64,000 nt of DNA from a phage, in sequence record PV805632.1; one strand, written 5' to 3'. This document shows, piece by piece, positions 31,983-45,880 of this stretch (the stretch's first letter is position 1; every line of letters starts with the position of its first letter). The notes below the pieces were generated by a model. The model was given only the letters and a program-made list of their open reading frames with translations. It had not been told where the DNA came from and made no database searches. The translations under genes were made by a program, and so were the position numbers.

Positions 31983-32213
31983 TCTGGTAGGTGGCTCAGA
32001 AGCTGCTGCTAGGTGTGGTAGTGTTTATAGTCCTGATGCTACTACTGGTCAGGATTATAGACGTGTCGGCTCCATACATAGCTTTTATCATCACTGTCAT
32101 TATCCTGTGGAAATGCAGTGGTAAACACGGTGGTGACAAGCCGCCAGAATAACAACAACCGAACCAGTGGATTGGAATACTCTCCCCAGTCCATTGGTTC
32201 AACCGAGGCTAAT

Positions 32214-32384
32214 ATGAACAAATTTACTATTCACTGGCTCAATGGAATAGTTAGTTCTTTCATGGGTGGGGAACCTGTTGAAGGAAACAAAGCATTCCAC
32301 ATTGATTCAGAAGGCTGCAAAATCTTAGTACCATACGCTTGGTATAAGAATGGTGAAGTTGAAGCATTGAAAAAGAGCAGTTAA
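32214..32384 (+). CDS. hypothetical small protein (56 aa)
   Basis: ORF track 32118..32384; ATG 32214 with CCGAGG RBS preferred. Confidence 0.35.
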   Translation: MNKFTIHWLNGIVSSFMGGEPVEGNKAFHIDSEGCKILVPYAWYKNGEVEALKKSS

Positions 32385-32922
32385 TATCGTGAAGGGTTCT
32401 GTCAGAATCCTTTGAGATAGGAACTCCTATCATAACCTTTCTTAACTTAATCTTTGCCGTATGGCACTGACGCTAGGGGTGGCCCCCCATCCGTCAGACA
32501 GACTATTTTAAGAATAGGTTATCTCAGAAAATGTAAAGCAACATTCGGGTTAATCAATGGCCTCTTCTATAGGGGCCATTTCTGAATCTTAGGCTATATC
32601 CCAAAGGTTAGTATCTTTGGGATAAGGCTTCAGATCCCTTATCAAACTAACTGCTCAATGTTGAGTATATTAACTAACCAAGCCCAGTAAGGGGGCGGGA
32701 GTTTAATGCCGGTAAGCATAAGCCTATCCGTCTACGACATCGAACTGTTAGATCTTACGTGCAACATAGGGTAATGGGAGGATTCGTCCCCTCCCACCTA
32801 TTATGAACCAATTCGAAGTAGCACTGATTGATTAGCTGTGGAAGGTAGGCCGATGTCCACAAGCATGGCCCAGAATCAGTGCTACCCCTAATTGGAAGAA
32901 TTAAGACGGGTCTGGTGAAGTA

Positions 32923-33016
32923 GATGGGGTTCGATTCCCTCCGGTGGAGTAATCCACTAGCGTGCTTGGTGCACGAATAAGACTTAGTACTGGTGGTTCG
33001 ATTCCATCCCCCGTTA
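32923..33016 (+). other. tRNA-like element: two tandem consensus T-arm motifs (GGGGTTCGATTCCC at 32926-32939 and GGTGGTTCGATTCCATC at 32992-33008) that do not fold into canonical cloverleaves
   Basis: GGTTCGATTCC 11-mer twice, 69 nt apart, inside a 1.1-kb ORF-free region; a partner 5' acceptor strand is absent for the first copy, and for the second only as GATGGGG giving a 94-nt span. Confidence 0.25.
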
Positions 33017-33442
33017 CCCGAAGTCGCCAGGTACTTATGGCAAACAACGAGGTAGTAACGAACTAGTCATTCGTCAAACGCCTCACCTAATTATGAGTCA
33101 GCAAGAACGCCTTCACCTAAACTTAAACAAAAAAGCTTAACGCAATAATTATGTAGGGGTATGTAAGGATTGCGAAGAAGGAGCCAGTTAGAGCCTGGTA
33201 TGACTCACCTATTTAGCAGTAACATAGTCCTGATTGCATAGCACTCTAAAGACAACACTGGTAAGACAGTCCAGTGGCTGCTAATGTATAGTTATTCCCC
33301 TCGACGGGAATTTCGCTAGTGAAGGTAACACTTAAAAATCCAAACCTACGTCTTACTACTATCGGGCTATCAACCCACGGTCGCTTAACCCACTGGTGGT
33401 AGCAGTTTGACGGCCTGCCTCGTTGACTGCGTTAAAGTCACT

Positions 33443-33480
33443 AAGTCCCTCGGAGCCGTCACTCTGGGGGACTTTTTTAT
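33443..33480 (+). terminator. hairpin AAGTCCC...GGGACTT with TTTTTT
   Basis: 7-bp stem, large loop, T-run at the end of the ORF-free region. Confidence 0.35.
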
Positions 33481-33507
33481 TTGAGAACTACTTATGAGAC
33501 GTTTTAT

Positions 33508-33660
33508 ATGATTGACCTAATCTTAACCCCGTATGCCTATGAGGTAACGGATAACCGAGGACGTAAGTCTTTGGTGTTTGCAGGTAGCGTAGCCTATAAC
33601 AACGCAGTCATGTTTAAATACAAACTTAAACCACTCTATGAGGCTAACAATGGAATTTGA
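33508..33660 (+). CDS. possible small ORF (50 aa), not in ORF track
   Basis: manual translation MIDLILTPYAYEVTDNRGRKSLVFAGSVAYNNAVMFKYK...; overlaps start of next small ORF. Confidence 0.25.
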   Translation: MIDLILTPYAYEVTDNRGRKSLVFAGSVAYNNAVMFKYKLKPLYEANNGI

Positions 33661-33787
33661 TGATTTAGATTTTGAAGCTATTGAAAAGGCGAACCAGGAG
33701 AAGCTGGAACAGGCTAATCGTGAAGCTGAAGAGCTAGAAAACGCTAAAGGTAACAACGATTGCACGAGTGGTGGTTGCACCATTTAA
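33650..33787 (+). CDS. possible small acidic helical protein (45 aa), not in ORF track
   Basis: manual translation MEFDDLDFEAIEKANQEKLEQANREAEELENAKGNNDCTSGGCTI; codon usage matches the genome; preferred over antisense ORF 33523..33783. Confidence 0.3.
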   Translation: MEFDDLDFEAIEKANQEKLEQANREAEELENAKGNNDCTSGGCTI

Positions 33788-33860
33788 CAAACAAGTGTAA
33801 GGTAGTTTTTACCGAAAGGTACTGAACTACTTACGTAGTGAGGCTGTAATAGCCAAAACA

Positions 33861-33898
33861 AAGAAAGCCCCTCATTTGAGGGGCTTTCTTATTTATAC
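33861..33898. terminator. bidirectional intrinsic terminator (13-bp stem AAGAAAGCCCCTC / GAGGGGCTTTCTT)
   Basis: long perfect stem with T-runs on both strands, between convergent + and - units. Confidence 0.7.
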
Positions 33899-34495
33899 AG
33901 GATTTACTGTTTGAAATACCCTGACAGATACCTTAGTGAGTGTAATAGTTTGTCCACTAACGTTATGCATACCTAATTGTATGCCATTGACCATAAATGG
34001 GTCAGTGCTGCCCATGGTATATGTTGCAAGGTTTACTTCCTCGTTGCTTATATCATTACCCTGGAATTTAGAACTAAAAGCAGAACCCCTTATAGTTGTT
34101 CCATTGGGTCGTCTTGTTTGTGTTCTCCACTCTCTAACTGTCCCATCATCCCCGGCAATACTACCAGTAATCCGTACTACGAAAATTACTTGTGTATTGC
34201 CTTCTCTAGCAGGGAAGAGTAGATTGTTATCTAATATAGTAGTACCAGCAGTTCCTGCCGGATCCTTAGTTAAGCCTTCCAAACTAAAATAATTGAACCA
34301 GCTTGTATCAGTGATTGTCTGGCTTCCAGCCCAATCCCATATATCTAATAAAAAAGGATTTGGCAATTCTTTTGCCAAATCCTCGTCCGTTTTGGATGCA
34401 AGTATGCTTTTCCCCTTGTCTCCGATAAGGGTCATTCCACCCATAACCAAAGGCATTGCATCAAAACCCTGATCGTATTTGTCTTTAATGGTCAT
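33893..34495 (-). CDS. hypothetical protein downstream of the virion RNAP gene (200 aa)
   Basis: ORF track 33893..34531; start moved to ATG 34495 (MTIKDKYDQ) with GGGGA RBS, since 34531 lies inside the terminator hairpin. Confidence 0.5.
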   Translation of the reverse strand: MTIKDKYDQGFDAMPLVMGGMTLIGDKGKSILASKTDEDLAKELPNPFLLDIWDWAGSQTITDTSWFNYFSLEGLTKDPAGTAGTTILDNNLLFPAREGNTQVIFVVRITGSIAGDDGTVREWRTQTRRPNGTTIRGSAFSSKFQGNDISNEEVNLATYTMGSTDPFMVNGIQLGMHNVSGQTITLTKVSVRVFQTVNPV

Positions 34496-34523
34496 AAAGT
34501 CCCCGTAGATAATAATAAAAAGA

Positions 34524-34550
34524 AAGCCCACACTACTGGTGGGCTTTATT
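34524..34550. terminator. terminator hairpin AAGCCCAC-loop-GTGGGCTT with T-rich flanks
   Basis: 8-bp stem immediately after the virion RNAP stop. Confidence 0.6.
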
Positions 34551-34553
34551 TTA

Positions 34554-37500
34554 TCAATTTACAAGGTTTATCCAAGGGTTCAGGTTGTGAGCACGAAGAC
34601 CCTGACCAAAGCCCCATGAGTAATCCAGACTACCCTTAGCAGCAATACTAAAGATGTTGTCCTGAATAGGTAAGCCAACATTACCAAACATGGTAGGAGT
34701 TGGAGCCAACATCGCCATTGCTGCATGTACTGGGTTGTTACGAATCATGGACACTGCAACCTTAGCTGAACGAATCTTAAAGTTGTAGAACCACATCAAA
34801 CCAACGCTTTCCATATACCCACGGAAGCGACCAGGCAGACGGTCATAGTTAATGAACTCTTCGGTTACACGTCCCAGTGCTTCTTCACGAGTCTTACCTT
34901 TACGCTGGGTCAATTCATCATAGATGATTGCTTTAGCGATAAAGTCAGAGTACTCAACCGTCTTCTGGATACCCTGGAACAGAGCAGTATCCTTAGTGAT
35001 AAGTGCATAACGACCAGCAGCACGTACAGACTTAGGTAACTTATCCGCCAGCTTTTCCATGTATTCGTGAAGTTTACCTTCAGTAATCAGGATGTCATCA
35101 CGACCAATACCAGCATCTGCAATTGAAGAGAACTCACCAGCTTCTATCAGAGGCCAGATACTCATACGCTTATGGCTATCAGTAATGGACTGAATCTCAG
35201 CCTTAAGTTTACGAATCTGGTTCGGGTTAGTAGCTGCACGTAATTCTGCTTCTGCATCTACCTGACGTAAACGAGATTTAAGGTATTGGTTAATCTCAGC
35301 AGTCTTCCGTGGAATGCTCTTAGCAATGCTCTTAACCGGTACACCACGAGCAACCATCTGGTAAAGGTTAGCCAAAAAGTTAACAACAGGTACGACTACT
35401 GACTTAACTACAATCAGAGTCTTAGCATCTTTAACTAAATTTTGAACCAGGTTCTCACCACCCATTAAGTACTTATAGGCACGGTTACCGGCTAAACCCA
35501 GAATAGCTTTTTTAAAAGTATTAAGCGTTTCCGGGGACCAACGAGAATTACCAGACCAAGCATCACCAATCGAAGCTGCACGATAGCCAAGTGCATCATT
35601 CAGCATGTCACGACGTACCCACAGTTCACCCTCACCAAACAGTTTTTCTGCTTTCCGTCGAGTTTCACTGTTCATCAGCTTAAGAGCATCAGCAGTTACT
35701 GGGTCCAGTTTAGAACCAAAAAGGTTCACGTACTGGGACTTATTAGCAGCAGACATCTTAATGTCTTCCTTGTACATGCTATACAGGTTCTCAATCAGCA
35801 TATCGTTGAAACGCTGAGCCTTAGCTTCTTCCACCTGACGACCACGCCATACACCAATTGCACGGGCAAGATGATTTTCACCTTCAATATGCTTCAGCAT
35901 ATTAGGGTTAATTGATTCCTCATAAGCAACCACATCACCTTTAGCATTATATACGGGCAATAGTGGTTCATTACCACGTTCACCACGAGCTAGTGCTTTA
36001 GCGATACGGTCTACAGAAGGCTTGTCAGTAATACGACCAGCTACCATGGAACCCATCGTAAAGCCTGTACCGAGGTCTACACCACCAGCAGTATTACGAA
36101 CGTTCTGTAGAATACCTTGTGAGAACGGAGCCTGTGCCTGTACTGGGGCAAAGTAGTAGCTACGTGCCAGACCTCGGTTAGCAGAGCTACCTTGATAAGT
36201 ACTCAGACGTACATAGGACTTCTCTATCAAATCACCAAACTGGCTATCTTCAGCAACAACCAGACTAACACCCTGTTTAGTCTCACTAGGGATATACCCT
36301 TTGTACTGGTTCAGGGTTGCACGCATATTAGATTTGGCTTTAGCCATTTCATCTTTACGCTGCCCAACCAGGTAAGAAGTAGCAAAGTCCATTCCCTCAA
36401 CTTCTGTCTGAGCCAGTGAAGATAACATCTCACGGTCGGACTTGTTCATTGCTTCCAGTGCATACAGGGTAATAAGTTTATCCAGTTGAGCTACATCTAC
36501 AATAGAGCGAGTAGTCTTACGTTCACCTAACATACGAGAGATTGCAGTAGCATTCCGCAGCAAGTTTTTACCGACTGTGCCATTAATCATGTACTGAGCC
36601 AGTTGCTTAGATTTACGGTTAATCAGAGGCCAGTTACGACCAGCTTGTTTCTGCAAATCTGCTTCCAGCTTATTCACTTCACGGTCAACAATCTTCTGGT
36701 CAGATAGCAGGTCACGGATTTCAGCCAGAGACATGGTGTCACGCAGGACAGCTAAGTCAGTTTTACCCATACCAGTGTACATTGCTTTCCACTCATCCTT
36801 AGTCAGCTTACGGCTGAACTTAGATGCGATAGTGGTAGGCAGGTGTTCACGGAACTGCTGACGGTCAGCCTGCACCTGTGCACGAACTGCTTTAATCAAA
36901 TCGTATACAGAAGCATTACTCTTAGTACGACCGGTTAAGTCATTAACCAGGTCATGGAAAGGTTGCCATACTTTACCCTGGTTCATTGCAACCATAACGC
37001 CTTCAGCTACGTTTGCACCATTCTTCTCTGTAGCAATAGCAGCCATTAGTTGTGCAGCATGAGCAGCACCCTTAACCAATGGATTTTTGGTATTGGCTGC
37101 AACTTCACGAGCACTTTCTAAAACACGGGTAGACAGTACATCAATAGAGTCCACCAAATACTGGTTAGCACGGTCAATAGCATTACCACTAGGAGTAGCA
37201 ACGGAATCATAGAATGACTGTGCATTAAGGCTAGTCTGCATGATTGTTTGAGCCAGTGCATCCATACCTTCCTGTACGTTGGTAGCTTTAGTGTCACCTG
37301 CTACACGAGCATTCAGGCTTGCCATTGCAGCAGTACCAATGTTAGTCAGCATTGCATCGACGGTATTCCCAGATTTCTTATCTGCTTTCATAACAGGAAT
37401 GTTAGCCAGTACATTACGTACCTCTTCACTTACCATTGCCAGACCAACAAAGGTAGGCAGTATTGAAGAACGACCCTGCGCATCAAACTCAATATTGTTA

Positions 37501-40500
37501 GCACCCATGATGGTATCGAACTTCTGCTGTGCATAGTAACGGTCAGCAGGGTTAGTACTATCTGGGTCAGTCATGAATGATTCAACAGTCAGGTTCTTAG
37601 TAACGTGTGCATAGTATTCCTGTGCACGAGAAAGAGCAGCCGGACTAATAGCAGCTTCAGTAGCGAGTGCAGCAACAATGTTAGTAAAGAGACGCTGCTC
37701 CTGCATATTCATAGTGAAGCCATGAGCCTGAACATCACGGGTTACTTTAGTTGCGTGCTTTTTCGCATCAGAGAACTTACCTTCACGGATTACTTGCTGT
37801 ACTGGTTCTGAACCAATGTAGTTAGTAATCAGCTTATCAAATGTCTGTCCTAACTCTTCCAGACGGGTATTGTCACCATATGCTTTGTTATGGAACAAGG
37901 TAGTATCTTTGGCTACAGCAGCCGTAGGAGCCTGTCCACGCATAACTACTGAAGAGTTAAACAGTAAGCCAGAGAACATATCATCTGCATTAGCAGGTGC
38001 TTTCTTGCGACCAAATACCAGACGTTTGATTGCTTCATATACTGACTGAACCATGGCTTTCAGTGCAGTGGTCTTCTTCTGCTTACTAATTAATTCACGG
38101 TTAGTTAAGCCCCAAGCCATGTACTCATTCAGTGCAGCAGCTTTAGCCATTGCTGGTTCAATAAAGCCGTTAGACAAGTGACCATTAATGGTATTAAGTG
38201 CATCAGCATATGCTTCACGTACTGCCGGAGATTCATCCATAACATCCAGATTACGGAACTGGTTCATCAAGTCTTCAATATTCTGGACTGCTTCATTAGG
38301 AGTACCCTCATAGTGAGCCAGTACAGATTCAAAAGTAGAAGCATGTACTAATTCATGAACCAGAGTCTCTAGGGAAGGGGTAACTAAGTAGATGGTTTTA
38401 TCATCAAAGTTAGTCCAGCCATACGCATTACCAGCTTCGGCAGCTTCAATATCTTCCGGTGCTGGACGAGTAATGTTCTTCTCAATAGCATAGGCATCCA
38501 GTTGAGCAGGAGTACCGTAAACAACTTTGTAGTCTTTAGCAGCAAGGGATTTCTGTATCTCTTTCAATACTGCTTGCTGTTCTGGAGACATCTCTTTAGC
38601 CAGCTTGGTAATAGCAGTATTAGACAATAGACGTACACCAGACTTAAGTACACGACCAACTTGTTCCATTGCTGGCACTTCTTTAACAGGTGCTTCTTTA
38701 GTAGGTACTTCTTTCACTGGATCTGCTTTAGCAGCACGTACTGCATCACGACGCTTATTTAATTCAGCATCAAACAGTTCGTTCAGCTTAGCTACTTGCT
38801 GGTCTACAGTCAGTCCCTCAAGAGAAATTTTACCGTTGTTCACATAAGGAGCACCTACAGCAGCCATCTGGTCAACAGTGGTCTGTACCTGGTTCATTAC
38901 TTTGTGGCGAATATCCACACTTAAAGCAATGTTACGCAGGTTACGCTCAATAAGGTTAACACCTGAATTCTTAATCATATCAATCTTATACTGCCTGTCT
39001 CCCTCAACGCGACTGATATGAGAAAGCTGTTCAAAATCTAAAGCGGAACGGGCAATGTCATCAATTGTCTTATCTGACAACTTATCAAAGTCTACATTCT
39101 TCAAGAACTCAGAGAAGGATTCATATACAGCCTTGATAGGATTCCCCTGCCAGGAAGTGTATACAGCCTCGTTTGCTTTACGACTTGCATCAGTGATGTC
39201 ACTAATACCAATGTTCATACCATCAAAGATTTTCAGGGTATTCTTCGGAGCACCTTTCATAGTAGAAAGGGTCTGCATCATCATGCCATCACCAGTACCG
39301 ATGGTCATAAATGGAATACCTGCAACACCTGCTTGTGAAGGAGCATAGATGCTCATTGGCACACGCATACGGTCATCTAAGTTGGTAGCCAGTACTTGGT
39401 TAGCAACGTCAGTACTCTCACTGCCAGCAAGGTAGAAAGTCTGTGAGCCAGTCTCAATCATTGGAGCCAATGGAGATAATGATTCCTGGATTTCATTCAG
39501 TTCTTTCTGTGTTAAGAAATCACCCTTCTTCCAGGTTGGGTCTTTTTCTTTTTCTGCTAGCTTAGCCTGTACTGCTTGCTGGAACATATCCTGCAATACC
39601 AGAGACTGAATCTGAGTAGCCTTCTGCAAGTTCTCAGTAGAGTACATCAGACCTTCACCAACAGTATTACGGATACCGGTACGCATTGGCTCAACGAACA
39701 AATGGAGCATGTTCTCTTGTAAGTTCTTCAGAGCATTACCGGATACGGTAAATTTCTGAGGGTCTAACTTACCAGTCAGAGCACCATCTACTTCCTTAAT
39801 AAATAACTTACCTTTGCGCTTAGCTGGAATTTTACCAGTCAGTGCTTCCATAGAAGTAAGGAAGGTATCCAGCATAGCCTGAGCATCTGCCTCAGACGCA
39901 GCCTCTTTACCAAACATTGCCATAGCCGGGGAAATGCTGGGGTCAGCAGCACGTGCTTGCAGAACGTCGCTGAAACGTTCGTAGATGGTGTCAGTAATTG
40001 CACCGACTATATTACCAGCAATACCACGTGCACCAGCACCATAGATGGTAATGGTCAGGGGGTTTTTAGCGATGCCACGTTTCAGGTCCAGAGTACCATC
40101 TTCATTCAGGTTAAAGTCTTTAATGAACAGGTCCATTAACTTCTGGAGATGATTTATCTGGTTTATAACTGGAACGTTGTTACGGTAAGTAGTACGTAAC
40201 GCATTCAGTGCTTGTTGCAGACCATTGGTAGATGCTTCATACAAGTCAACATTATCGTCGATAGAACAATGTTCGTTCATCGTTTTACCAGCACGACCGA
40301 AGAACAAACCACCTTTGGCAGTATTCTTAATCCAGTCTGGGGTGAACTTACCACCAGTCATTAATACCATTGCGTTGATTGGGCCGTTGGTTACACCATC
40401 AGCTTCAACGTACAGAGGGGTAGTAAAATTAGCACGGTCATCACTGTTCAGGTAACGGGCATATTCCATCAGGGCCATGAGAGCTACGAAGGATTTGTTA

Positions 40501-43500
40501 TCACCCAGAGAGGTTTTCAGAATATCTACTGCATCAGTAGGTAAATAACCAGACTTATCAAACTCAACCATCATATCAACAGCAGGTTTCAAATTACCTT
40601 CCAGAGCTTTGGTCAGATTTTCAGACATAGCTTCACGGGACATTTTATGTACCTTGATGCCCAATGCCTGAGCCAGACCTAACTGGAAGTCAGAGAATGC
40701 TTGGCTGTTTTCATTACTCAAGTCGATAGTGGAGAAGGTTGGCAGAATTGCTTCACGAACCAGTTTACTGGATTGTGGGTTATTCTTACCAAGCATCTGC
40801 ATACGACCTACACGGGTCATGTTGTAACCGTAGTGAATGGGGGTATCCAAACCATTCTCTTGTTCTTTTAGCTGATTAATTAAACCGAACAAAGAATCAT
40901 ATGCCATAGATACCGATAAGTTCTTACCTTCCAGAGATTTGGCAGTGTTTTCATTCAGCAAATCAGGATTAAGAGAACCAGCACCCATCAGTTCCAGAAT
41001 GCCGTCTCGGCCTAATGCTTCATAGAAGTTAACCATCGGCATGTGTACACGGAACTCCGTAGCCTGTTCAGCTTTCAAAGCAGCTTTCTGTTCCGGGGTA
41101 TTCCTAACAGCAGGGTTACGTAACTGAGTTTGAGCCACGGAAGGAATGTCATCACCGAAGTACGTTTTCTCTTCCGGATTTACCAGCACAGCTTCCTCAA
41201 TTGCTGTAGGGAAATTATTAATAGGGTCTTTATCTGCCAACTTATTAATAGTGTACAAACCAATAGTCTTATTAGAATCCGGGTCAATCTCAGACACATC
41301 CAGCATAGTCTCAGTAACTGCACCCATCTCGATGAGGGAAGACAGAATCTCTGTAGCCATTGCCACTGGAATACCCTTGGTATAACCCAGTGGTGCATTA
41401 GGGTTACGGTTTAAACCCCAGTAGGATTCAATCTTTTGAGCCAGTGAGTTAGTAGCCTCAATCAGAGTCTGGGCATTCTCGAACTCAGCCAGAATACTTT
41501 CTGGTAACAGAGATGCATCTACACCAGTAATAGCAGCCACGTCTTTCATATCTTTAATGGCAGCATTCTGTGTAGCAGTCAGTCGCCATTGCAGACCAGC
41601 AAGTACAGCAGTCTCTAACAACTGGTCATTGAACTTAAAGGTATCTCCATCTTTCTCTACGATGTTAAGTAACTTACCACCTACCCAACGGTTAGCCTCA
41701 GTACCTTCTGCAAAACGTTTACCAACATTTTTATTAGCAAGGAACTTAGCCAGTCGTTCAGACAGAGTAGCCTTCAGAGTTTCCCCAAAGTCCATCAAGT
41801 CTTGATAGCGTTCTAACACATCACCTGCGAGAACGTTATTTTCTTTTTGAGTGAACGCTTCAAAGCGAGCAGCAGAAGACAGTGCTTGCTTGATATCAGC
41901 CAAAGGAGATTCAGAACCAATGGTACGGGACTTAGGTTCTTCCGGTAGGGTAAATGCCTTCAGGAACTGGTTCGGTGTCTTCTCATTGTTATAGACAGGG
42001 AACACTGCTTCCATTCCAGAAAGGGGTTTGCCACCCACTGTATAATCTGCTTTCAGCTGAGCCAGTGATACTTCATCCTTCTCCACGTTGTTAGTGTTAC
42101 GACCAGTGGTATCTACACCAACCAGAATCTGTGCATTATTGGCTTCAACGAAAGACTGAACAGTATTGAATTGTTCAGCAGTCAGCTTCTGATTATCAAA
42201 CAGTTGCAGAGATACAAATGGTTGTTCACTGCCTTTATAGAAGGTAGAGCGAATAGCACCTGTATCCAGGGACATATCACGATACCCATCATGCCCAAAT
42301 ACGTCGGACAGGCTGATATGGTCGCCATTAGAACCAACCACAGTACCATCAGCAAACAGCCATGGACTCTCCCTACGATCACCATACTTATTAAGAGTTT
42401 CCTGTGAAATAGTATTTTCTTTCACATAGGCATCTCTTTCAGATTCAGTAGGTTGCTCGATGGTATCCTCATTAGTGGGGGTAGCATCATCTACAACCGG
42501 GCTAGTCTTTTCAGACTTAGGTACTTTCTCTTCCTGTACAGGTGTAACTTCTGGCTGGGAGAATGTATTACGTACATAGTTCATAAAATCATTACGTGCT
42601 TGAGAAGGAGAAGACCATACTTCCCGTGTGCTACGTAAACTAAAGATTCGACCTTCAGGAGTCATTACGTAAGGTACATTTGTTTTACCGTACTTAAATG
42701 AAGTGAGTACATCTGACTTACCAGTAACAGTGCTTTCCCCTGGAATGACAATAGTCTTACCACCAGTAGAGGGAACAGCACGAACACCCTCAATATCCTT
42801 ACCAAGAGAAATATACTCTTTACCGTTGTAATCAAAGTACTGACCTATCTGCATATAGGTAGCTTGTTGCTTACCAGTAAACTCAGCAGTTTTCATCTCC
42901 GGGCCGTTAGGTACAGACGTACTTTCAGACTTAGGCTTAGATACTTTCTCTGGTTCTGACTTAGACTCTACAGTGTTAGGAGCAGTTTTATTGTTTACCA
43001 CTGGTTTAGCTTTAGACTGTACAGTAGTAGTGTCCTCTTGCACTGGTGCAGGGGTTTCATCAACCTGATTCACTGGTTCATTAGTCTGTTGGGACTGAGT
43101 GGCATTAAGACCACCTTGACGGAACTCTTTAACTACCTGGGCAGCTGGCTTGTTCAGACGTGAATCCAACGAGGTAACTTTCACATGAGAAACATTAAGC
43201 TCCGGGTAAGCCGTAGCAAGTGCGTTAGCAATATCAGCTACGGTCTTAGCTTCCAGCGCTACTTGCTGGGCAAACTTAACAGACTTGGTATCATAAGGAT
43301 TAACACCGAGGCCAGTACGACTACGTACCCATTCACGCGTAGGCGTGAGAGCCTGATAATGAACAGACTTATTCTTATCCGCATTCCCCGAAATCAGATG
43401 CTCATTCAACGCTCCGACCTTATTCTGCATGTGCTGGGCGAACTTCATAAAATCGCTCAGATAAGCGGAGGCCAAATCGAAGTTACCAGAGTTATACGCA

Positions 43501-45815
43501 GAACGAATGCGTTTCGCATGTTGCAACGCAGAGTACTGTCCTTCATTAGAACGAGACTCGTCGGTTTTAATCTGTTTACTAACGATGTCTTGACGACGTA
43601 AGCCCAGTTCTTCTGCTTTAGCATCATACTCACGTGCACCCTGTAACAGAGCAGCAGCTGATTGCAGGGCAGCACGTTGACGATTATTCAGTGTAATCTT
43701 ACCCTCACTCGCATGCTTCAGAACCATGTTCACTGAATCTGCATCCAGTACTTCTGGAGACACATCAGCAGCCATAGCAATGTTGTTTGCTTGGGCTTGG
43801 TTAGCTTCTTCAGTAGCTTTCAGCTTACCTGCTTCAGCCTGTTCCTGAATCATAGAATGGATGGCACGGAATGCACGAAGTACTTTAGGGGTATTCTGTA
43901 TGTTAGCCATCAGACCGGAGAACTGGTCTACGATTGCAGCAGCAGGGGAACCTTGTTCCAGATTAGCCAGTGCACCTGGGTCACGGTTAATGAAGCTATC
44001 CATAGACATGATGTTGTCATACATCTGGATTGCAGCTTCCATTTGAACGTTAGGGTCTTCAGCAGTATTAACCAGGTCAGCCATCTTCTGAATAGCTTCC
44101 ACACGGTTAGTGGAACCAGAAACAGCTTCGCGGATTACTGGGTTAGCTTGCTCCAATTCTACTGGGTCAAACTTCATTGCCTGAGTTAAATCAGCAGCAT
44201 ACTGGGTAGCAGCAGCCTTCTCTTCTGGAGTGATATCCATTGCATCTACTGCTTCCTGTACAGTTGCTTGTGCTTGCTCTGCCTGAGCAGCAGCTTCCTG
44301 TGCAGCAGCATTAACCGTAGCATCAGCTACAGGGGATGCTTGTTCATTACGCTTAGCAACTTCTTCACCACGTTGAACCAGGATGTTAGTAAGAGGAGAT
44401 GCAGCTTTTGCTAATGTTTTACCAACCAGAGAAGCACCAGCCAGAGTAGTACGAAGAGCAGGGCCAGCAGCAGCACCGGCAGCTTTAACAGTTGCACCAG
44501 GAGCTTGAGCAACCCCAGCACTACCGAAGCCATAAAGTGCACCAAGACCAGCTTGCTCACCAACCCCTTTGAGAGTATCTCGGGATGCATCAACATTTTC
44601 CTTGATTGCACGGTTCTGGGCATACTGACCAAAGCCTGACTGAATACCTTCTTCAACTGTTTCACGTAGCATATTGGAACCAGCACCAGCCAGTGAACCT
44701 ACCTTAAGTGGGTTAAGTTCAAAGCGAGATACCAGTGGACCGGTAGCAGCAGCAACTGGAGCAGTTAAGCCAGCAGCAAGGATACCTGTTTCAGATGCAG
44801 TCTGACGACGTGCTTCATCAGGAGATAAACCATCGGCAATATGTTGTTGGTAAACAGGAGACTTACTTGCCAGTTCTGGATGGGACATCTTCATGATTTC
44901 AGAAGCAGTCTGTTGGTATGCACCACCAGCTTCCATAGCACCGATTGCAATAGCAGGTGCAGCAACACGACCAGTAGACAATGCAACCTGTGCAGGACGT
45001 GAACCCAACCCAGCAGCTAAGGTAATACCCTTAACAGCTTTATCACCACCTACCATTACTTTACCGAGTGCAGATACACCACGGATAAGTGGACCACCGG
45101 TAAAGAGGGAACCAACACCTTCACTCAGTCCATCTGAGGCAGCCATACCATTATCAAGTGTGTTAGCAACAGAGTCGAAAGCGTCACGACCAATACGAGA
45201 CAGGGAGGCAACCAAATCGCTCTCCCCGTTTTTGATATCCTGTTCATAGAGTTTCTGGTTCTTTTGGGCAGAAATCTGGTTCTGATTCTGAACAACTTTA
45301 CGGGTAGCATTCAGTGCATCAGACTGTAGATTGTGTACACCTTCATTCAACCAATCCATCCCGGAAGCAATGGTTGCCCCGGCATTATCATTGACCAGAC
45401 CTGCGCCAAGAGCAGCAATGCCCCCAAGGGTATTAGCAACACCAAGACCAACACCAGAAAGAGTATCGCCAAATGCTTCTGCGTTAGTACGCTGTTTAGA
45501 TAAGTCCTGACGTACAGCATCCGCAGCATTAGCTCGGCTATTAAGAATCTGTAAACCTTGCTCATTACCGTACTTATTAATGATTTCTAATGGGGAGGCT
45601 TGAGTGAAATCTGCCTGAAGTGAACCTGGTTCGAATGCACCGATTCCAAGATTACCTACTCGTCCAGTCTGGAGATTGTAAGCATTCTCTGGGGTTAATT
45701 GGAAAGGGTTTTGCCCTTGTGCAGCTTGCTTCTGAGAGGTTGCAGTAGAGACATCGACTTGCTTAGCATTAGTGATGCTGTCTGCGAAACCTGCCAGACG
45801 GTCAAATGTTGACAT
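34554..45815 (-). CDS. giant virion-encapsidated RNA polymerase (N4 vRNAP-like), about 3,750 aa
   Basis: single uninterrupted ORF of about 11.3 kb, the hallmark of N4-like phages; start set to ATG 45815 (MSTFDRL) with AGGAAA RBS; no catalytic motif verified by eye. Confidence 0.8.
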   Translation of the reverse strand: MSTFDRLAGFADSITNAKQVDVSTATSQKQAAQGQNPFQLTPENAYNLQTGRVGNLGIGAFEPGSLQADFTQASPLEIINKYGNEQGLQILNSRANAADAVRQDLSKQRTNAEAFGDTLSGVGLGVANTLGGIAALGAGLVNDNAGATIASGMDWLNEGVHNLQSDALNATRKVVQNQNQISAQKNQKLYEQDIKNGESDLVASLSRIGRDAFDSVANTLDNGMAASDGLSEGVGSLFTGGPLIRGVSALGKVMVGGDKAVKGITLAAGLGSRPAQVALSTGRVAAPAIAIGAMEAGGAYQQTASEIMKMSHPELASKSPVYQQHIADGLSPDEARRQTASETGILAAGLTAPVAAATGPLVSRFELNPLKVGSLAGAGSNMLRETVEEGIQSGFGQYAQNRAIKENVDASRDTLKGVGEQAGLGALYGFGSAGVAQAPGATVKAAGAAAGPALRTTLAGASLVGKTLAKAASPLTNILVQRGEEVAKRNEQASPVADATVNAAAQEAAAQAEQAQATVQEAVDAMDITPEEKAAATQYAADLTQAMKFDPVELEQANPVIREAVSGSTNRVEAIQKMADLVNTAEDPNVQMEAAIQMYDNIMSMDSFINRDPGALANLEQGSPAAAIVDQFSGLMANIQNTPKVLRAFRAIHSMIQEQAEAGKLKATEEANQAQANNIAMAADVSPEVLDADSVNMVLKHASEGKITLNNRQRAALQSAAALLQGAREYDAKAEELGLRRQDIVSKQIKTDESRSNEGQYSALQHAKRIRSAYNSGNFDLASAYLSDFMKFAQHMQNKVGALNEHLISGNADKNKSVHYQALTPTREWVRSRTGLGVNPYDTKSVKFAQQVALEAKTVADIANALATAYPELNVSHVKVTSLDSRLNKPAAQVVKEFRQGGLNATQSQQTNEPVNQVDETPAPVQEDTTTVQSKAKPVVNNKTAPNTVESKSEPEKVSKPKSESTSVPNGPEMKTAEFTGKQQATYMQIGQYFDYNGKEYISLGKDIEGVRAVPSTGGKTIVIPGESTVTGKSDVLTSFKYGKTNVPYVMTPEGRIFSLRSTREVWSSPSQARNDFMNYVRNTFSQPEVTPVQEEKVPKSEKTSPVVDDATPTNEDTIEQPTESERDAYVKENTISQETLNKYGDRRESPWLFADGTVVGSNGDHISLSDVFGHDGYRDMSLDTGAIRSTFYKGSEQPFVSLQLFDNQKLTAEQFNTVQSFVEANNAQILVGVDTTGRNTNNVEKDEVSLAQLKADYTVGGKPLSGMEAVFPVYNNEKTPNQFLKAFTLPEEPKSRTIGSESPLADIKQALSSAARFEAFTQKENNVLAGDVLERYQDLMDFGETLKATLSERLAKFLANKNVGKRFAEGTEANRWVGGKLLNIVEKDGDTFKFNDQLLETAVLAGLQWRLTATQNAAIKDMKDVAAITGVDASLLPESILAEFENAQTLIEATNSLAQKIESYWGLNRNPNAPLGYTKGIPVAMATEILSSLIEMGAVTETMLDVSEIDPDSNKTIGLYTINKLADKDPINNFPTAIEEAVLVNPEEKTYFGDDIPSVAQTQLRNPAVRNTPEQKAALKAEQATEFRVHMPMVNFYEALGRDGILELMGAGSLNPDLLNENTAKSLEGKNLSVSMAYDSLFGLINQLKEQENGLDTPIHYGYNMTRVGRMQMLGKNNPQSSKLVREAILPTFSTIDLSNENSQAFSDFQLGLAQALGIKVHKMSREAMSENLTKALEGNLKPAVDMMVEFDKSGYLPTDAVDILKTSLGDNKSFVALMALMEYARYLNSDDRANFTTPLYVEADGVTNGPINAMVLMTGGKFTPDWIKNTAKGGLFFGRAGKTMNEHCSIDDNVDLYEASTNGLQQALNALRTTYRNNVPVINQINHLQKLMDLFIKDFNLNEDGTLDLKRGIAKNPLTITIYGAGARGIAGNIVGAITDTIYERFSDVLQARAADPSISPAMAMFGKEAASEADAQAMLDTFLTSMEALTGKIPAKRKGKLFIKEVDGALTGKLDPQKFTVSGNALKNLQENMLHLFVEPMRTGIRNTVGEGLMYSTENLQKATQIQSLVLQDMFQQAVQAKLAEKEKDPTWKKGDFLTQKELNEIQESLSPLAPMIETGSQTFYLAGSESTDVANQVLATNLDDRMRVPMSIYAPSQAGVAGIPFMTIGTGDGMMMQTLSTMKGAPKNTLKIFDGMNIGISDITDASRKANEAVYTSWQGNPIKAVYESFSEFLKNVDFDKLSDKTIDDIARSALDFEQLSHISRVEGDRQYKIDMIKNSGVNLIERNLRNIALSVDIRHKVMNQVQTTVDQMAAVGAPYVNNGKISLEGLTVDQQVAKLNELFDAELNKRRDAVRAAKADPVKEVPTKEAPVKEVPAMEQVGRVLKSGVRLLSNTAITKLAKEMSPEQQAVLKEIQKSLAAKDYKVVYGTPAQLDAYAIEKNITRPAPEDIEAAEAGNAYGWTNFDDKTIYLVTPSLETLVHELVHASTFESVLAHYEGTPNEAVQNIEDLMNQFRNLDVMDESPAVREAYADALNTINGHLSNGFIEPAMAKAAALNEYMAWGLTNRELISKQKKTTALKAMVQSVYEAIKRLVFGRKKAPANADDMFSGLLFNSSVVMRGQAPTAAVAKDTTLFHNKAYGDNTRLEELGQTFDKLITNYIGSEPVQQVIREGKFSDAKKHATKVTRDVQAHGFTMNMQEQRLFTNIVAALATEAAISPAALSRAQEYYAHVTKNLTVESFMTDPDSTNPADRYYAQQKFDTIMGANNIEFDAQGRSSILPTFVGLAMVSEEVRNVLANIPVMKADKKSGNTVDAMLTNIGTAAMASLNARVAGDTKATNVQEGMDALAQTIMQTSLNAQSFYDSVATPSGNAIDRANQYLVDSIDVLSTRVLESAREVAANTKNPLVKGAAHAAQLMAAIATEKNGANVAEGVMVAMNQGKVWQPFHDLVNDLTGRTKSNASVYDLIKAVRAQVQADRQQFREHLPTTIASKFSRKLTKDEWKAMYTGMGKTDLAVLRDTMSLAEIRDLLSDQKIVDREVNKLEADLQKQAGRNWPLINRKSKQLAQYMINGTVGKNLLRNATAISRMLGERKTTRSIVDVAQLDKLITLYALEAMNKSDREMLSSLAQTEVEGMDFATSYLVGQRKDEMAKAKSNMRATLNQYKGYIPSETKQGVSLVVAEDSQFGDLIEKSYVRLSTYQGSSANRGLARSYYFAPVQAQAPFSQGILQNVRNTAGGVDLGTGFTMGSMVAGRITDKPSVDRIAKALARGERGNEPLLPVYNAKGDVVAYEESINPNMLKHIEGENHLARAIGVWRGRQVEEAKAQRFNDMLIENLYSMYKEDIKMSAANKSQYVNLFGSKLDPVTADALKLMNSETRRKAEKLFGEGELWVRRDMLNDALGYRAASIGDAWSGNSRWSPETLNTFKKAILGLAGNRAYKYLMGGENLVQNLVKDAKTLIVVKSVVVPVVNFLANLYQMVARGVPVKSIAKSIPRKTAEINQYLKSRLRQVDAEAELRAATNPNQIRKLKAEIQSITDSHKRMSIWPLIEAGEFSSIADAGIGRDDILITEGKLHEYMEKLADKLPKSVRAAGRYALITKDTALFQGIQKTVEYSDFIAKAIIYDELTQRKGKTREEALGRVTEEFINYDRLPGRFRGYMESVGLMWFYNFKIRSAKVAVSMIRNNPVHAAMAMLAPTPTMFGNVGLPIQDNIFSIAAKGSLDYSWGFGQGLRAHNLNPWINLVN

Positions 45816-45880
45816 AGCATGTTTCCTGTTCAAACTTATATCGTATATAGGTAACCTACTCTACAGTAAGCCAGTGTAAG

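Follow-up and report, generated by a model that had tools for sequence, protein, structure and literature searches.

Region 32385-33507 of phage sequence record PV805632.1, analysed here within a 64,000-nt window presented as one strand, is the tRNA/small-RNA island of a Gamaleyavirus, here without canonical tRNAs. The two tRNA T-arm motifs found in this island are parts of one conserved tRNA-like RNA, which we call element X, and not two decayed tRNAs. Judged from its sequence, the window represents a G7C-like, N4-like coliphage of the genus Gamaleyavirus, and what it retains of the island consists of conserved and structured non-coding RNA modules in a row (A1, Z, Y, X, C and D).

A first-pass annotation of the window had described the region as free of open reading frames (ORFs), rich in hairpins and holding two T-arm motifs, an overall observation that was confirmed apart from small coordinate slips. 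There was indeed no ORF of at least 60 amino acids (aa), the longest ones wholly inside the region being 43 aa (32454-32585, + strand) and 48 aa (32901-33047, - strand). Both T-arm motifs are exact copies of GGTTCGATTCC, and the 64-kb window has just these two, at 32928-32938 and 32995-33005, each on the + strand; their start-to-start spacing is 67 nt, where 69 nt had been given. With up to one mismatch allowed, about 0.54 matches to this motif were expected by chance, and at least two were obtained in 7 of 100 shuffles. The three stems reported at the same time also exist, at slightly different positions: AATGGCC/GGCCATT at 32556-32580 instead of 32552-32576, the 10-bp TATCCCAAAG/CTTTGGGATA stem at 32597-32624 instead of 32598-32625, and TGGGAGG/CCTCCCA at 32775-32796 instead of 32774-32795.

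Standard tools found no tRNA around these motifs. ARAGORN returned 0 tRNA and 0 transfer-messenger RNA (tmRNA) genes for the whole window, and what it gave in its relaxed, intron, mitochondrial and tmRNA modes was implausible and was discarded as noise: a call with a 2-base anticodon, one with a 92-nt intron, and 20 'mtRNAs'. No Rfam family, GOLLD and ROOL included, matched the window at gathering score. At E<=10 the only match in the region relevant to the T-arms was a 13-nt T-loop match to tmRNA (10.9 bits), the Rfam tRNA model RF00005 gave no match in the region, and GOLLD, ROOL and other families gave no match of note there. These searches, which the first-pass annotation had proposed, yielded no accepted tRNA or tmRNA; as ARAGORN and Rfam reject any tRNA, its own failure to build a cloverleaf around the T-arms was correct.

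The comparison with N4-like relatives that had also been proposed proved decisive, and the T-arm element was found in these relatives. We aligned 15 non-identical copies of X from three phage lineages, N4-like and T4-like (alignment A1). The structure was first read from pairwise compensations in this alignment, with 500 shuffles and helices whose 3' partners were slid by 1-3 columns serving as controls. It comprises the following features:

32904-33016, + strand: element X, 113 nt, holding both T-arm motifs and defined by covariation, RNAalifold and a covariance model
32904-32910 with 33010-33016, + strand: acceptor-like stem of 7 bp, covarying
32926-32929 with 32937-32940, + strand: T-arm 1, loop TTCGATT, covarying
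32943-32948 with 32953-32958, + strand: closed acceptor-like hairpin with a variable loop, covarying
32961-32965 with 32971-32975, + strand: D-arm-like hairpin, loop TTGGT (conserved UUGG(U/A)), preceded by UA, covarying
32992-32996 with 33004-33008, + strand: T-arm 2, loop TTCGATT, covarying

Within the helices of X, 99.5% of the 390 cells of alignment A1 form standard pairs. Changes on both sides were seen in 13 of 26 pairs and every helix carries at least one compensatory change; none of the 500 shuffles matched these covariation values, and the slid controls were only 39-56% paired. The pair at alignment column 10:119, which is the place of the G3:U70 pair of tmRNA, is C-G in eight copies (all the N4-likes other than UE-S5a and St11Ph5, where it is U-A), G-U in four T4-like copies and A-U in one. 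RNAalifold, run unguided, gave the identical five-helix structure, and a covariance model built from alignment A1 scored the window copy at 137 bits, compared to 20-22 bits for ordinary tRNAs. G-U pairs make up 49 of 405 X helix cells and raise pairing of the + strand from 86% to 98%; because these pairs would be C-A mismatches on the other strand, the functional X molecule is the + strand RNA. Unpaired nucleotides are conserved as well, with GUAGAU, UAGC, UUGG and GACUUA invariant across all three clades. In tRNA, invariant unpaired bases of this type make tertiary contacts.

X shares with tRNA its two T-arms (GTTCRANYC-type loop) and a covarying 7-pair terminal stem, but it has no cloverleaf with an anticodon arm and a 7-nt anticodon loop. 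As its consensus fold includes no anticodon arm, X cannot decode. T-stem 2 is separated from the acceptor strand by one unpaired C, and CCC follows directly 3' of X at 33017-33019. The first-pass annotation had offered degenerate tRNA genes, a tRNA-like structured RNA and an origin or packaging region as interpretations. It was thus partly right, since only the tRNA-like structured RNA holds: both T-arms lie in one RNA whose five helices are kept by compensatory changes.

We used the query 32896-33022 alone to find the X segment elsewhere. Identity was 90-99% in Gamaleyaviruses, about 75% in Kaypoctaviruses (Klebsiella N4-like phages) and 77-79% in T4-like phages of three genera (Dhakavirus VR5, Kanagawavirus PEi20 and KLB31, Karamvirus CkP1). 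In VR5, PEi20 and KLB31, X starts a few to about 20 nt 3' of the CCA of a CAT-anticodon tRNA annotated as Met or Ile2, in CkP1 it comes after a similar unannotated tRNA-like 3' end, and in VR5 it is followed by tRNA-Arg. These neighbours indicate that X takes a tRNA slot in T4-like clusters. In Kaypoctavirus a distance of several hundred nt separates it from the tRNA cluster upstream, and it is kept in G7C, EC1-UPM and the window phage, all of which are without any tRNA. Two IMG/VR pattern scans for X (a third was made for element Y, described below) found the same phage lineages only. A looser two-T-loop pattern, applied to metagenomes and genomes, gave among the matches listed mostly tandem canonical tRNAs, together with two more true X copies (loci L139 and L158) and arrays from Bacteroidota.

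The Bacteroidota genomes and metagenomes carry tandem arrays of tRNA-like units without an anticodon arm (L236 1169-1246; L287 at about 5060, minus strand; L076, L093, L095, L098 and L265), each unit having the order D-arm, about 12 nt including GACU, T-arm and closed acceptor hairpin. A Band_7/SPFH gene lies near the arrays in L236, where it is downstream, and in L287, which also has an RtcB gene, a context reminiscent of YrlA-rtcB loci.

The island lies between a gp47 homologue on one side and the convergent virion RNA polymerase gene on the other, corresponding to the N4 gp48-gp49 position. A small + strand ORF (32118-32384) ends right before the region, and the ORFs flanking the island are on the + strand; the virion RNA polymerase gene (3,759 aa) occupies 34554-45833 on the minus strand. 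By BLAST, Gamaleyaviruses are the nearest relatives, with 82-95% identity across the region. In phage N4, the homologous gp47-gp48 gap measures 1.5 kb and contains four tRNAs (Asn, Ser, Thr, Pro), while Kaypoctaviruses have 3-6 tRNAs at the homologous locus and other Gamaleyaviruses 1-3, namely tRNA-Ile(aat) alone or with Ala, Cys or an odd tRNA. Several Gamaleyavirus relatives have a tmRNA-like tag RNA there in addition to tRNAs; the window has neither. Block comparison with the relatives showed the locus to be a mosaic. All the relatives compared have the sequence from 32100 to about 32805-32874 and block 33018-33213, and most have block 33206-33653. The block holding both T-arms (32877-33012/18) is present in PhAPEC5, UE-S5a, G7C, Mimir124 and St11Ph5 and absent from ECBP1, Bas96 and ST4. 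Near 32875 several relatives have extra sequence of about 370-720 bp (720 bp in PhAPEC5). With both the tRNAs and this extra segment missing, the window phage carries a reduced version of the island. The G7C and EC1-UPM islands are similarly reduced, with no tRNA at all, and EC1-UPM has been described as being without a tRNA gene (PMC3853248).

Taken together, we consider it probable that the region is a reduced tRNA island in which both T-arms belong to one anticodon-less RNA that is processed like a tRNA and acts as a mimic of tRNA shape. The island would be read rightwards together with the upstream + strand genes, ending at a terminator at 33443-33482. The outer half of X, a 7-bp acceptor-like stem beside T-arm 2, resembles a tRNA minihelix, with a single-stranded GG-containing linker in the place of the D-arm as in the tRNA-like domain (TLD) of tmRNA. 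Instead of an anticodon arm, the inner half forms a second, circularly permuted tRNA-like body made up of T-arm 1, the closed acceptor-like hairpin, UA and the D-arm-like hairpin with its UUGG loop. Formally, X can be viewed as a tandem tRNA dimer from which both anticodon arms are gone, in which the 3' acceptor strand of unit 1 pairs with the 5' acceptor strand of unit 2 and the outer strands pair together. The tRNA-maturation machinery may cut X from a polycistronic transcript, with RNase P acting at the 5' end, trimming and CCA repair at the 3' end, and modification of the T-loops. X would then persist as a stable mimic showing two tRNA elbows and an acceptor end. As a putative mimic or decoy, it may occupy a factor that reads tRNA shape and not the anticodon, candidates being a host tRNA-directed defence or toxin, SmpB and a tRNA-processing enzyme.

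Several points weigh against this interpretation. The analysis shows the fold of X, its conservation, its strand and its position in or just after tRNA clusters; its transcription, processing, stability and decoy role are inferred, and its binding partners are candidates only. Folded as a single sequence, the window copy is unremarkable (z = -1.5), and its minimum free energy (MFE) structure is an alternative in which hairpin 2 pairs with T-arm 2; we set this MFE fold aside and preferred the covariation-supported one because the other lineages cannot form the alternative pairing. At position 1:72 the window copy has an A-A mismatch, T-arm 1 is limited to 4 pairs plus a conserved U-C mismatch, and the CCA is not fully encoded, the corresponding nucleotides being CCC or CCU in N4-likes and AAC, ACU or AUU in T4-likes. 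G3:U70, the AlaRS identity pair, is present in just four T4-like copies, so that tmRNA-like charging is not a conserved feature of X. Finally, the 15 sequences form three tight clades, and independent compensatory events are therefore far fewer than the cell counts suggest.

Two further alignments, each of nine Gamaleyaviruses, covered module C (A2) and modules A1 and Z (A3). The other features of the island are as follows:

32385-32670, + strand: module A1, a multi-branched structured RNA (fold z = -6.9) containing the hairpins at 32556-32580 and 32597-32624
32670-32807, + strand: module Z, a structured segment ending in a bulged hairpin (32766-32800) that includes the 32775-32796 stem
32817-32886, + strand: element Y, with a 13-bp outer helix (32817-32829 with 32874-32886) capping a core of about 44 nt
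33017-33213, + strand: module C, a noncoding block of about 197 nt with hairpins CGCAAT/ATTGCG (33141-33146 with 33169-33174) and GCCAG/CTGGT
33206-33213, + strand: tRNA-Ile(aat) presence/absence junction, where BLAST blocks abut with an 8-nt overlap; no tRNA in the window
33214-33442, + strand: module D, a structured segment, its first part (33208-33349) also present in phage N4
33443-33482, + strand: intrinsic terminator closing the island, with a 13-pair stem including 7 G-C pairs, followed by TTTTTATTT

The fold of module A1 had an energy of -103.4 kcal/mol compared to -68.9 kcal/mol in shuffles; folding of 32660-32905 and of 33016-33485 gave z = -2.7 and z = -2.2, respectively. Module A1 is almost invariant in the nine Gamaleyaviruses, and just its boundary hairpins (32382-32422 and 32615-32651) are common to Kuravirus SU10. 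The boundary hairpins are paralogous (GAGATAGGA...CCTATC and GGGATAAGG...CCCTTATC), with about 190 nt between them in the window; in SU10 (L009 1402-1467) they are adjacent and overlapping, as though insertion of a module had duplicated its boundary. Across 32670-32904, modules Z and Y share 75% identity with a noncoding gap of SU10 (L009 1501-1747), an unrelated phage, and module Z is partly replaced in G7C and UE-S5a.

The outer helix of element Y, extendable to about 22 bp, showed double compensatory changes at 13 of 13 pairs among 21 sequences from Gamaleyavirus, Kaypoctavirus KP8, Kuravirus and Ackermannviridae. Its core is nearly invariant in Gamaleyavirus, KP8, SU10 and many Ackermannviridae. 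Within the core, an inner helix pairs 32835-32842 with 32856-32864 around one bulged A, and a GGCC/GGCC H-type pseudoknot (32848-32851 with 32866-32869) is possible, both of its sites being invariant and hence without covariation. Other copies of Y were located at L009 1646-1742 (SU10), at L011 1479-1575 and in L060-L075; in Ackermannviridae, Y lies inside the tRNA cluster and its flanking sequences resemble tRNA ends. Y matched no Rfam family, and comparison of its core with the hammerhead, hepatitis delta virus (HDV)-like, pistol, twister and fluoride motifs gave no fit.

Module C has a mean column identity of 88% with long invariant runs, and its 33141/33174 stem is kept in St11Ph5 through compensatory changes. 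The end of module C is the exact site of tRNA-Ile in relatives. At this junction the tRNA-Ile is inserted in PhAPEC5, UE-S5a, Mimir124, ECBP1 and ST4, and a second, odd tRNA with a 2-base anticodon call is present or absent among the relatives; the 8-nt overlap of the flanking blocks suggests cassette-like gain or loss of tRNA genes. Module D is 77% identical to the N4 gp47-gp48 gap, and its consensus fold contains a Y-shaped element with four pairs kept by double changes. Short A-rich linkers join the modules of the island, and the annotations of G7C and PhAPEC5 place a terminator at the same site as 33443-33482.

To the right of the island, at 33654-33767, the window seems to have lost or replaced most of the gp48-like ORF of relatives (e.g. 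PhAPEC5, L001 2863-3243), of which only the ends align. A strong two-way terminator hairpin of 13 pairs (33861-33890) stands where the rightward and leftward genes meet, the latter being a 212-aa ORF (33893-34531) and, further to the right, the virion RNA polymerase gene. All the spurious Rfam 'leader' and 'sRNA' matches near 33800-33940 are explained by this hairpin.

The tmRNA-like tag RNA of relatives occupies the same locus, within a segment that has no counterpart in the window, and contains a 10-codon SsrA-like frame. This frame reads ANDDVVLMAA* (GCA AAC GAU GAU GUU GUU CUG AUG GCU GCU UAA) in UE-S5a, ECBP1, St11Ph5 and the Kaypoctaviruses K60PH164C1 and VLCpiP4a, ANDDVVLMVA* in Kaypoctavirus PW7 and ANEEAYLMVA* in PhAPEC5; the E. 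coli SsrA tag is ANDENYALAA. The tag positions are L001 at about 1330-1395 (PhAPEC5), L002 1355, L005 1254, L006 1236, L014 692, L015 767, L018 544 and L316 2543, and in the loci inspected (L001, L015, L316) the frame lies 3' of a long hairpin and a conserved U-rich leader. The Rfam model tmRNA_permuted scored 47.8 bits on VLCpiP4a (L015), the gathering score being 47, with its tRNA-like half borrowed from the adjacent tRNA-Gly. ARAGORN detected no tmRNA in these tag loci, and none was reported for them in the literature found on the phages. A homologous leader with the frame ANEEMYLAVA* was observed in the one E. coli lambdoid prophage inspected (L316), between the Q antiterminator and holin genes, and DNA similar to this prophage locus was found in 114 of 5,426 E. 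coli genomes. In the window, a frame ANNEVVTN* at 33040 was rejected as a tag, being made by a window-specific 4-nt insertion (AACG, 33046-33049) in the otherwise invariant module C; the other eight phages have ANG* at this position. Relatives also have two further tRNA-like RNAs ending in an encoded ACCA (L001 at about 1745-1817 and 1822-1945; L005 1536-1719; L007 1430-1613). The first is a mini tRNA-like RNA of about 72 nt (UCCGGUG...UCUGGUUCGAGUCCAGA CGCCGGA ACCA) and the second measures about 125 nt (UACCAGU...ACUGGUA ACCA); G3:U70 is found in neither.

The main rival to a tRNA-shape mimic is that X and its neighbours are punctuation for processing and stability acting in cis, their tRNA-like and long-hairpin structures recruiting RNase P, RNase III or RNase E so that the polycistronic middle transcript is cut and its ends are protected, with no role in trans. 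X does stand in tRNA slots, the ribosome-binding site of the next ORF follows it by 10-20 nt in PEi20, KLB31 and CkP1, and the modules are separated by short linkers. The outer helix of Y resembles an RNase III substrate, and for such long hairpins a function of this kind is plausible. We nevertheless consider it unlikely as an account of the whole: a cleavage signal needs the acceptor/T minihelix only, which leaves the inner tRNA-like body and the invariant unpaired nucleotides unexplained, the window's island contains no gene to punctuate, and X is nearly unchanged among phages with very different adjoining modules. A second rival gives X a part in a phage trans-translation system, in which it would either supply a TLD piece or act as a decoy for SmpB, in concert with the tag RNA of relatives or in opposition to it. 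The three tag frames found in relatives at the same locus, the tmRNA_permuted score just above gathering on VLCpiP4a, the TLD-like outer half of X (acceptor stem, T-arm, GG linker, no D stem) and the inhibition of tmRNA by a TLD-only RNA (PMC4131195) are all consistent with such a part. Against it, X and the tag RNA are found independently of each other, X without the tag in the window and G7C and the tag without X in ECBP1, and G3:U70 is not conserved in X. There is moreover no tag frame in the sole T4-like locus screened (VR5, L010), the window-specific origin of the ANNEVVTN* frame at 33040 speaks against a tag in the window, and no Rfam tmRNA match at gathering score was obtained there. 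We regard a trans-translation role as very unlikely. X was also rejected as one half of a permuted tmRNA, given that its hairpin 2 has no CCA and a loop of only 4-7 nt, and that X and the tag RNA are independent.

Covariation, strand asymmetry and context contradict the two remaining readings, both of which take up options of the first-pass annotation. A pair of decayed tRNA genes that left the T-arms behind, in a cluster being lost, might be expected at a locus that is a tRNA cluster in relatives, in a phage that has lost every canonical tRNA, and from an element that looks like a tandem tRNA dimer with deleted anticodon arms and is not accepted as tRNA by ARAGORN or Rfam. All five helices are nonetheless maintained by compensatory changes between N4-like and T4-like phages, at 75-79% identity and with 13 covarying pairs, which largely refutes decay. 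The identity of X within Gamaleyavirus equals or exceeds that of the flanking DNA, the same truncated architecture occurs in every lineage, which is not expected from decay, and X is kept where all canonical tRNAs are lost; we find the pseudogene reading scarcely credible. Least credible of all is a DNA-level element, whether a replication origin, a packaging site or an array of promoter hairpins, for which the lack of ORFs, the wealth of inverted repeats and the use of DNA hairpins as early promoters by N4 could be cited. G-U pairs are tolerated on the + strand only, however, the T-loops of X are canonical RNA motifs, modules lie within the tRNA clusters of unrelated phages, where X fills a tRNA slot in T4-likes, a + strand intrinsic terminator closes the block, and a sigma-70 promoter scan found no more sites than in shuffles.

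X is absent from Rfam and we found no mention of it in the literature on these phages; tRNA mimics as a kind are already known. A bolder extension of the mimic interpretation is that X represents an undescribed class of phage tRNA mimic (closed, anticodon-less, two-elbow), with the build of a domain-swapped tRNA dimer, that is swapped between unrelated virulent enterobacterial phages and works as a decoy in trans; we put this forward tentatively, as possible but doubtful. The portable RNA kit in which it might travel could comprise X (N4-like and T4-like phages), Y (N4-like phages, Kuravirus, Ackermannviridae) and the tag RNA (relatives and lambdoid prophages), a grouping that we hold with similar reserve, and an acceptor- or elbow-directed defence toxin or SmpB is an equally speculative target for the decoy. 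Phage tRNAs are now discussed as a counter to host tRNA-targeting immunity, and an anticodon-less mimic that survives the loss of all decoding tRNAs points to a role of tRNA shape independent of decoding. The gap of about 1 kb that was left unannotated in phages such as G7C and EC1-UPM, which are described as being without tRNA genes, holds conserved structured RNAs, one of which is a putative tRNA mimic common to T4-like phages. Being small and well defined (113 nt, five covarying helices), X is directly testable, and because the relatives' tag RNA escapes standard tools, the island is a useful place to find RNA-based phage-host conflict.

Among known systems, GOLLD and ROOL have a similar setting, being long ORF-free structured RNA regions beside tRNA genes in phages. 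The island differs from them in having no Rfam match and in being a mosaic of independently exchangeable modules, not one large RNA. X resembles canonical phage tRNAs in its T-arm sequences, its 7-bp acceptor-like stem, its UA and D-like GG hairpin and its place in or just after tRNA clusters; it differs in having two T-arms, no anticodon arm and a length of 113 nt, and is rejected by ARAGORN and the Rfam tRNA model. The T4 species 1 and 2 RNAs (rnaC and rnaD) are likewise small stable RNAs within a phage tRNA cluster whose function is not established, and rnaC ends in a T-arm and an acceptor-like 3' strand. It has one T-arm only, compared to two in X, and X in T4-likes follows a CAT-anticodon tRNA, not tRNA-Arg. 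The best Smith-Waterman alignments of the region with rnaC and rnaD (common AUCUUUGCCGUA near 32450) were within shuffle range. The X covariance model scored rnaC at 19.3 bits, no better than ordinary tRNAs, and therefore no specific homology of X to T4 species 1 RNA was shown.

TLD-only RNAs act as inhibitors of tmRNA/SmpB, and mycobacteriophage DS6A has a TLD-only RNA (PMC4131195). As in the tmRNA TLD and the DS6A RNA, an acceptor stem, a T-arm and, in place of the D-arm, a single-stranded GG linker make up the outer half of X, with no anticodon arm, and X too is phage-encoded, at a locus where relatives have a tmRNA-like tag frame. X differs from tmRNA in that G3:U70 is not conserved, the CCA is incomplete and its Rfam match is limited to the 13-nt T-loop; nor does any reading frame of the window qualify as a tag, which would have a resume codon and finish in a hydrophobic ..AA*.

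The closest parallel to the inner half of X is the tRNA-like module of YrlA, which has the order V-T-AS-D (Chen et al. 2014, PMC4201824). X differs from YrlA in adding a second T-arm and an open 7-bp tRNA-type acceptor-like stem at its termini, and it probably has no Ro60-binding stem, no GNCGAAN0-1G motif being seen by eye in alignment A1. To our knowledge, the E. coli host is without Ro60. X does not appear to be adjacent to rsr or rtcB, although the window proteins were not scanned for the TROVE domain. The inner half nonetheless has the same permuted order of variable region, canonical T-arm, closed acceptor-like stem and D-arm-like GG-loop hairpin, the anticodon arm is missing from both RNAs, and helices 2-4 of X follow the order T-arm, closed acceptor-like stem and D-arm, all of them covarying.

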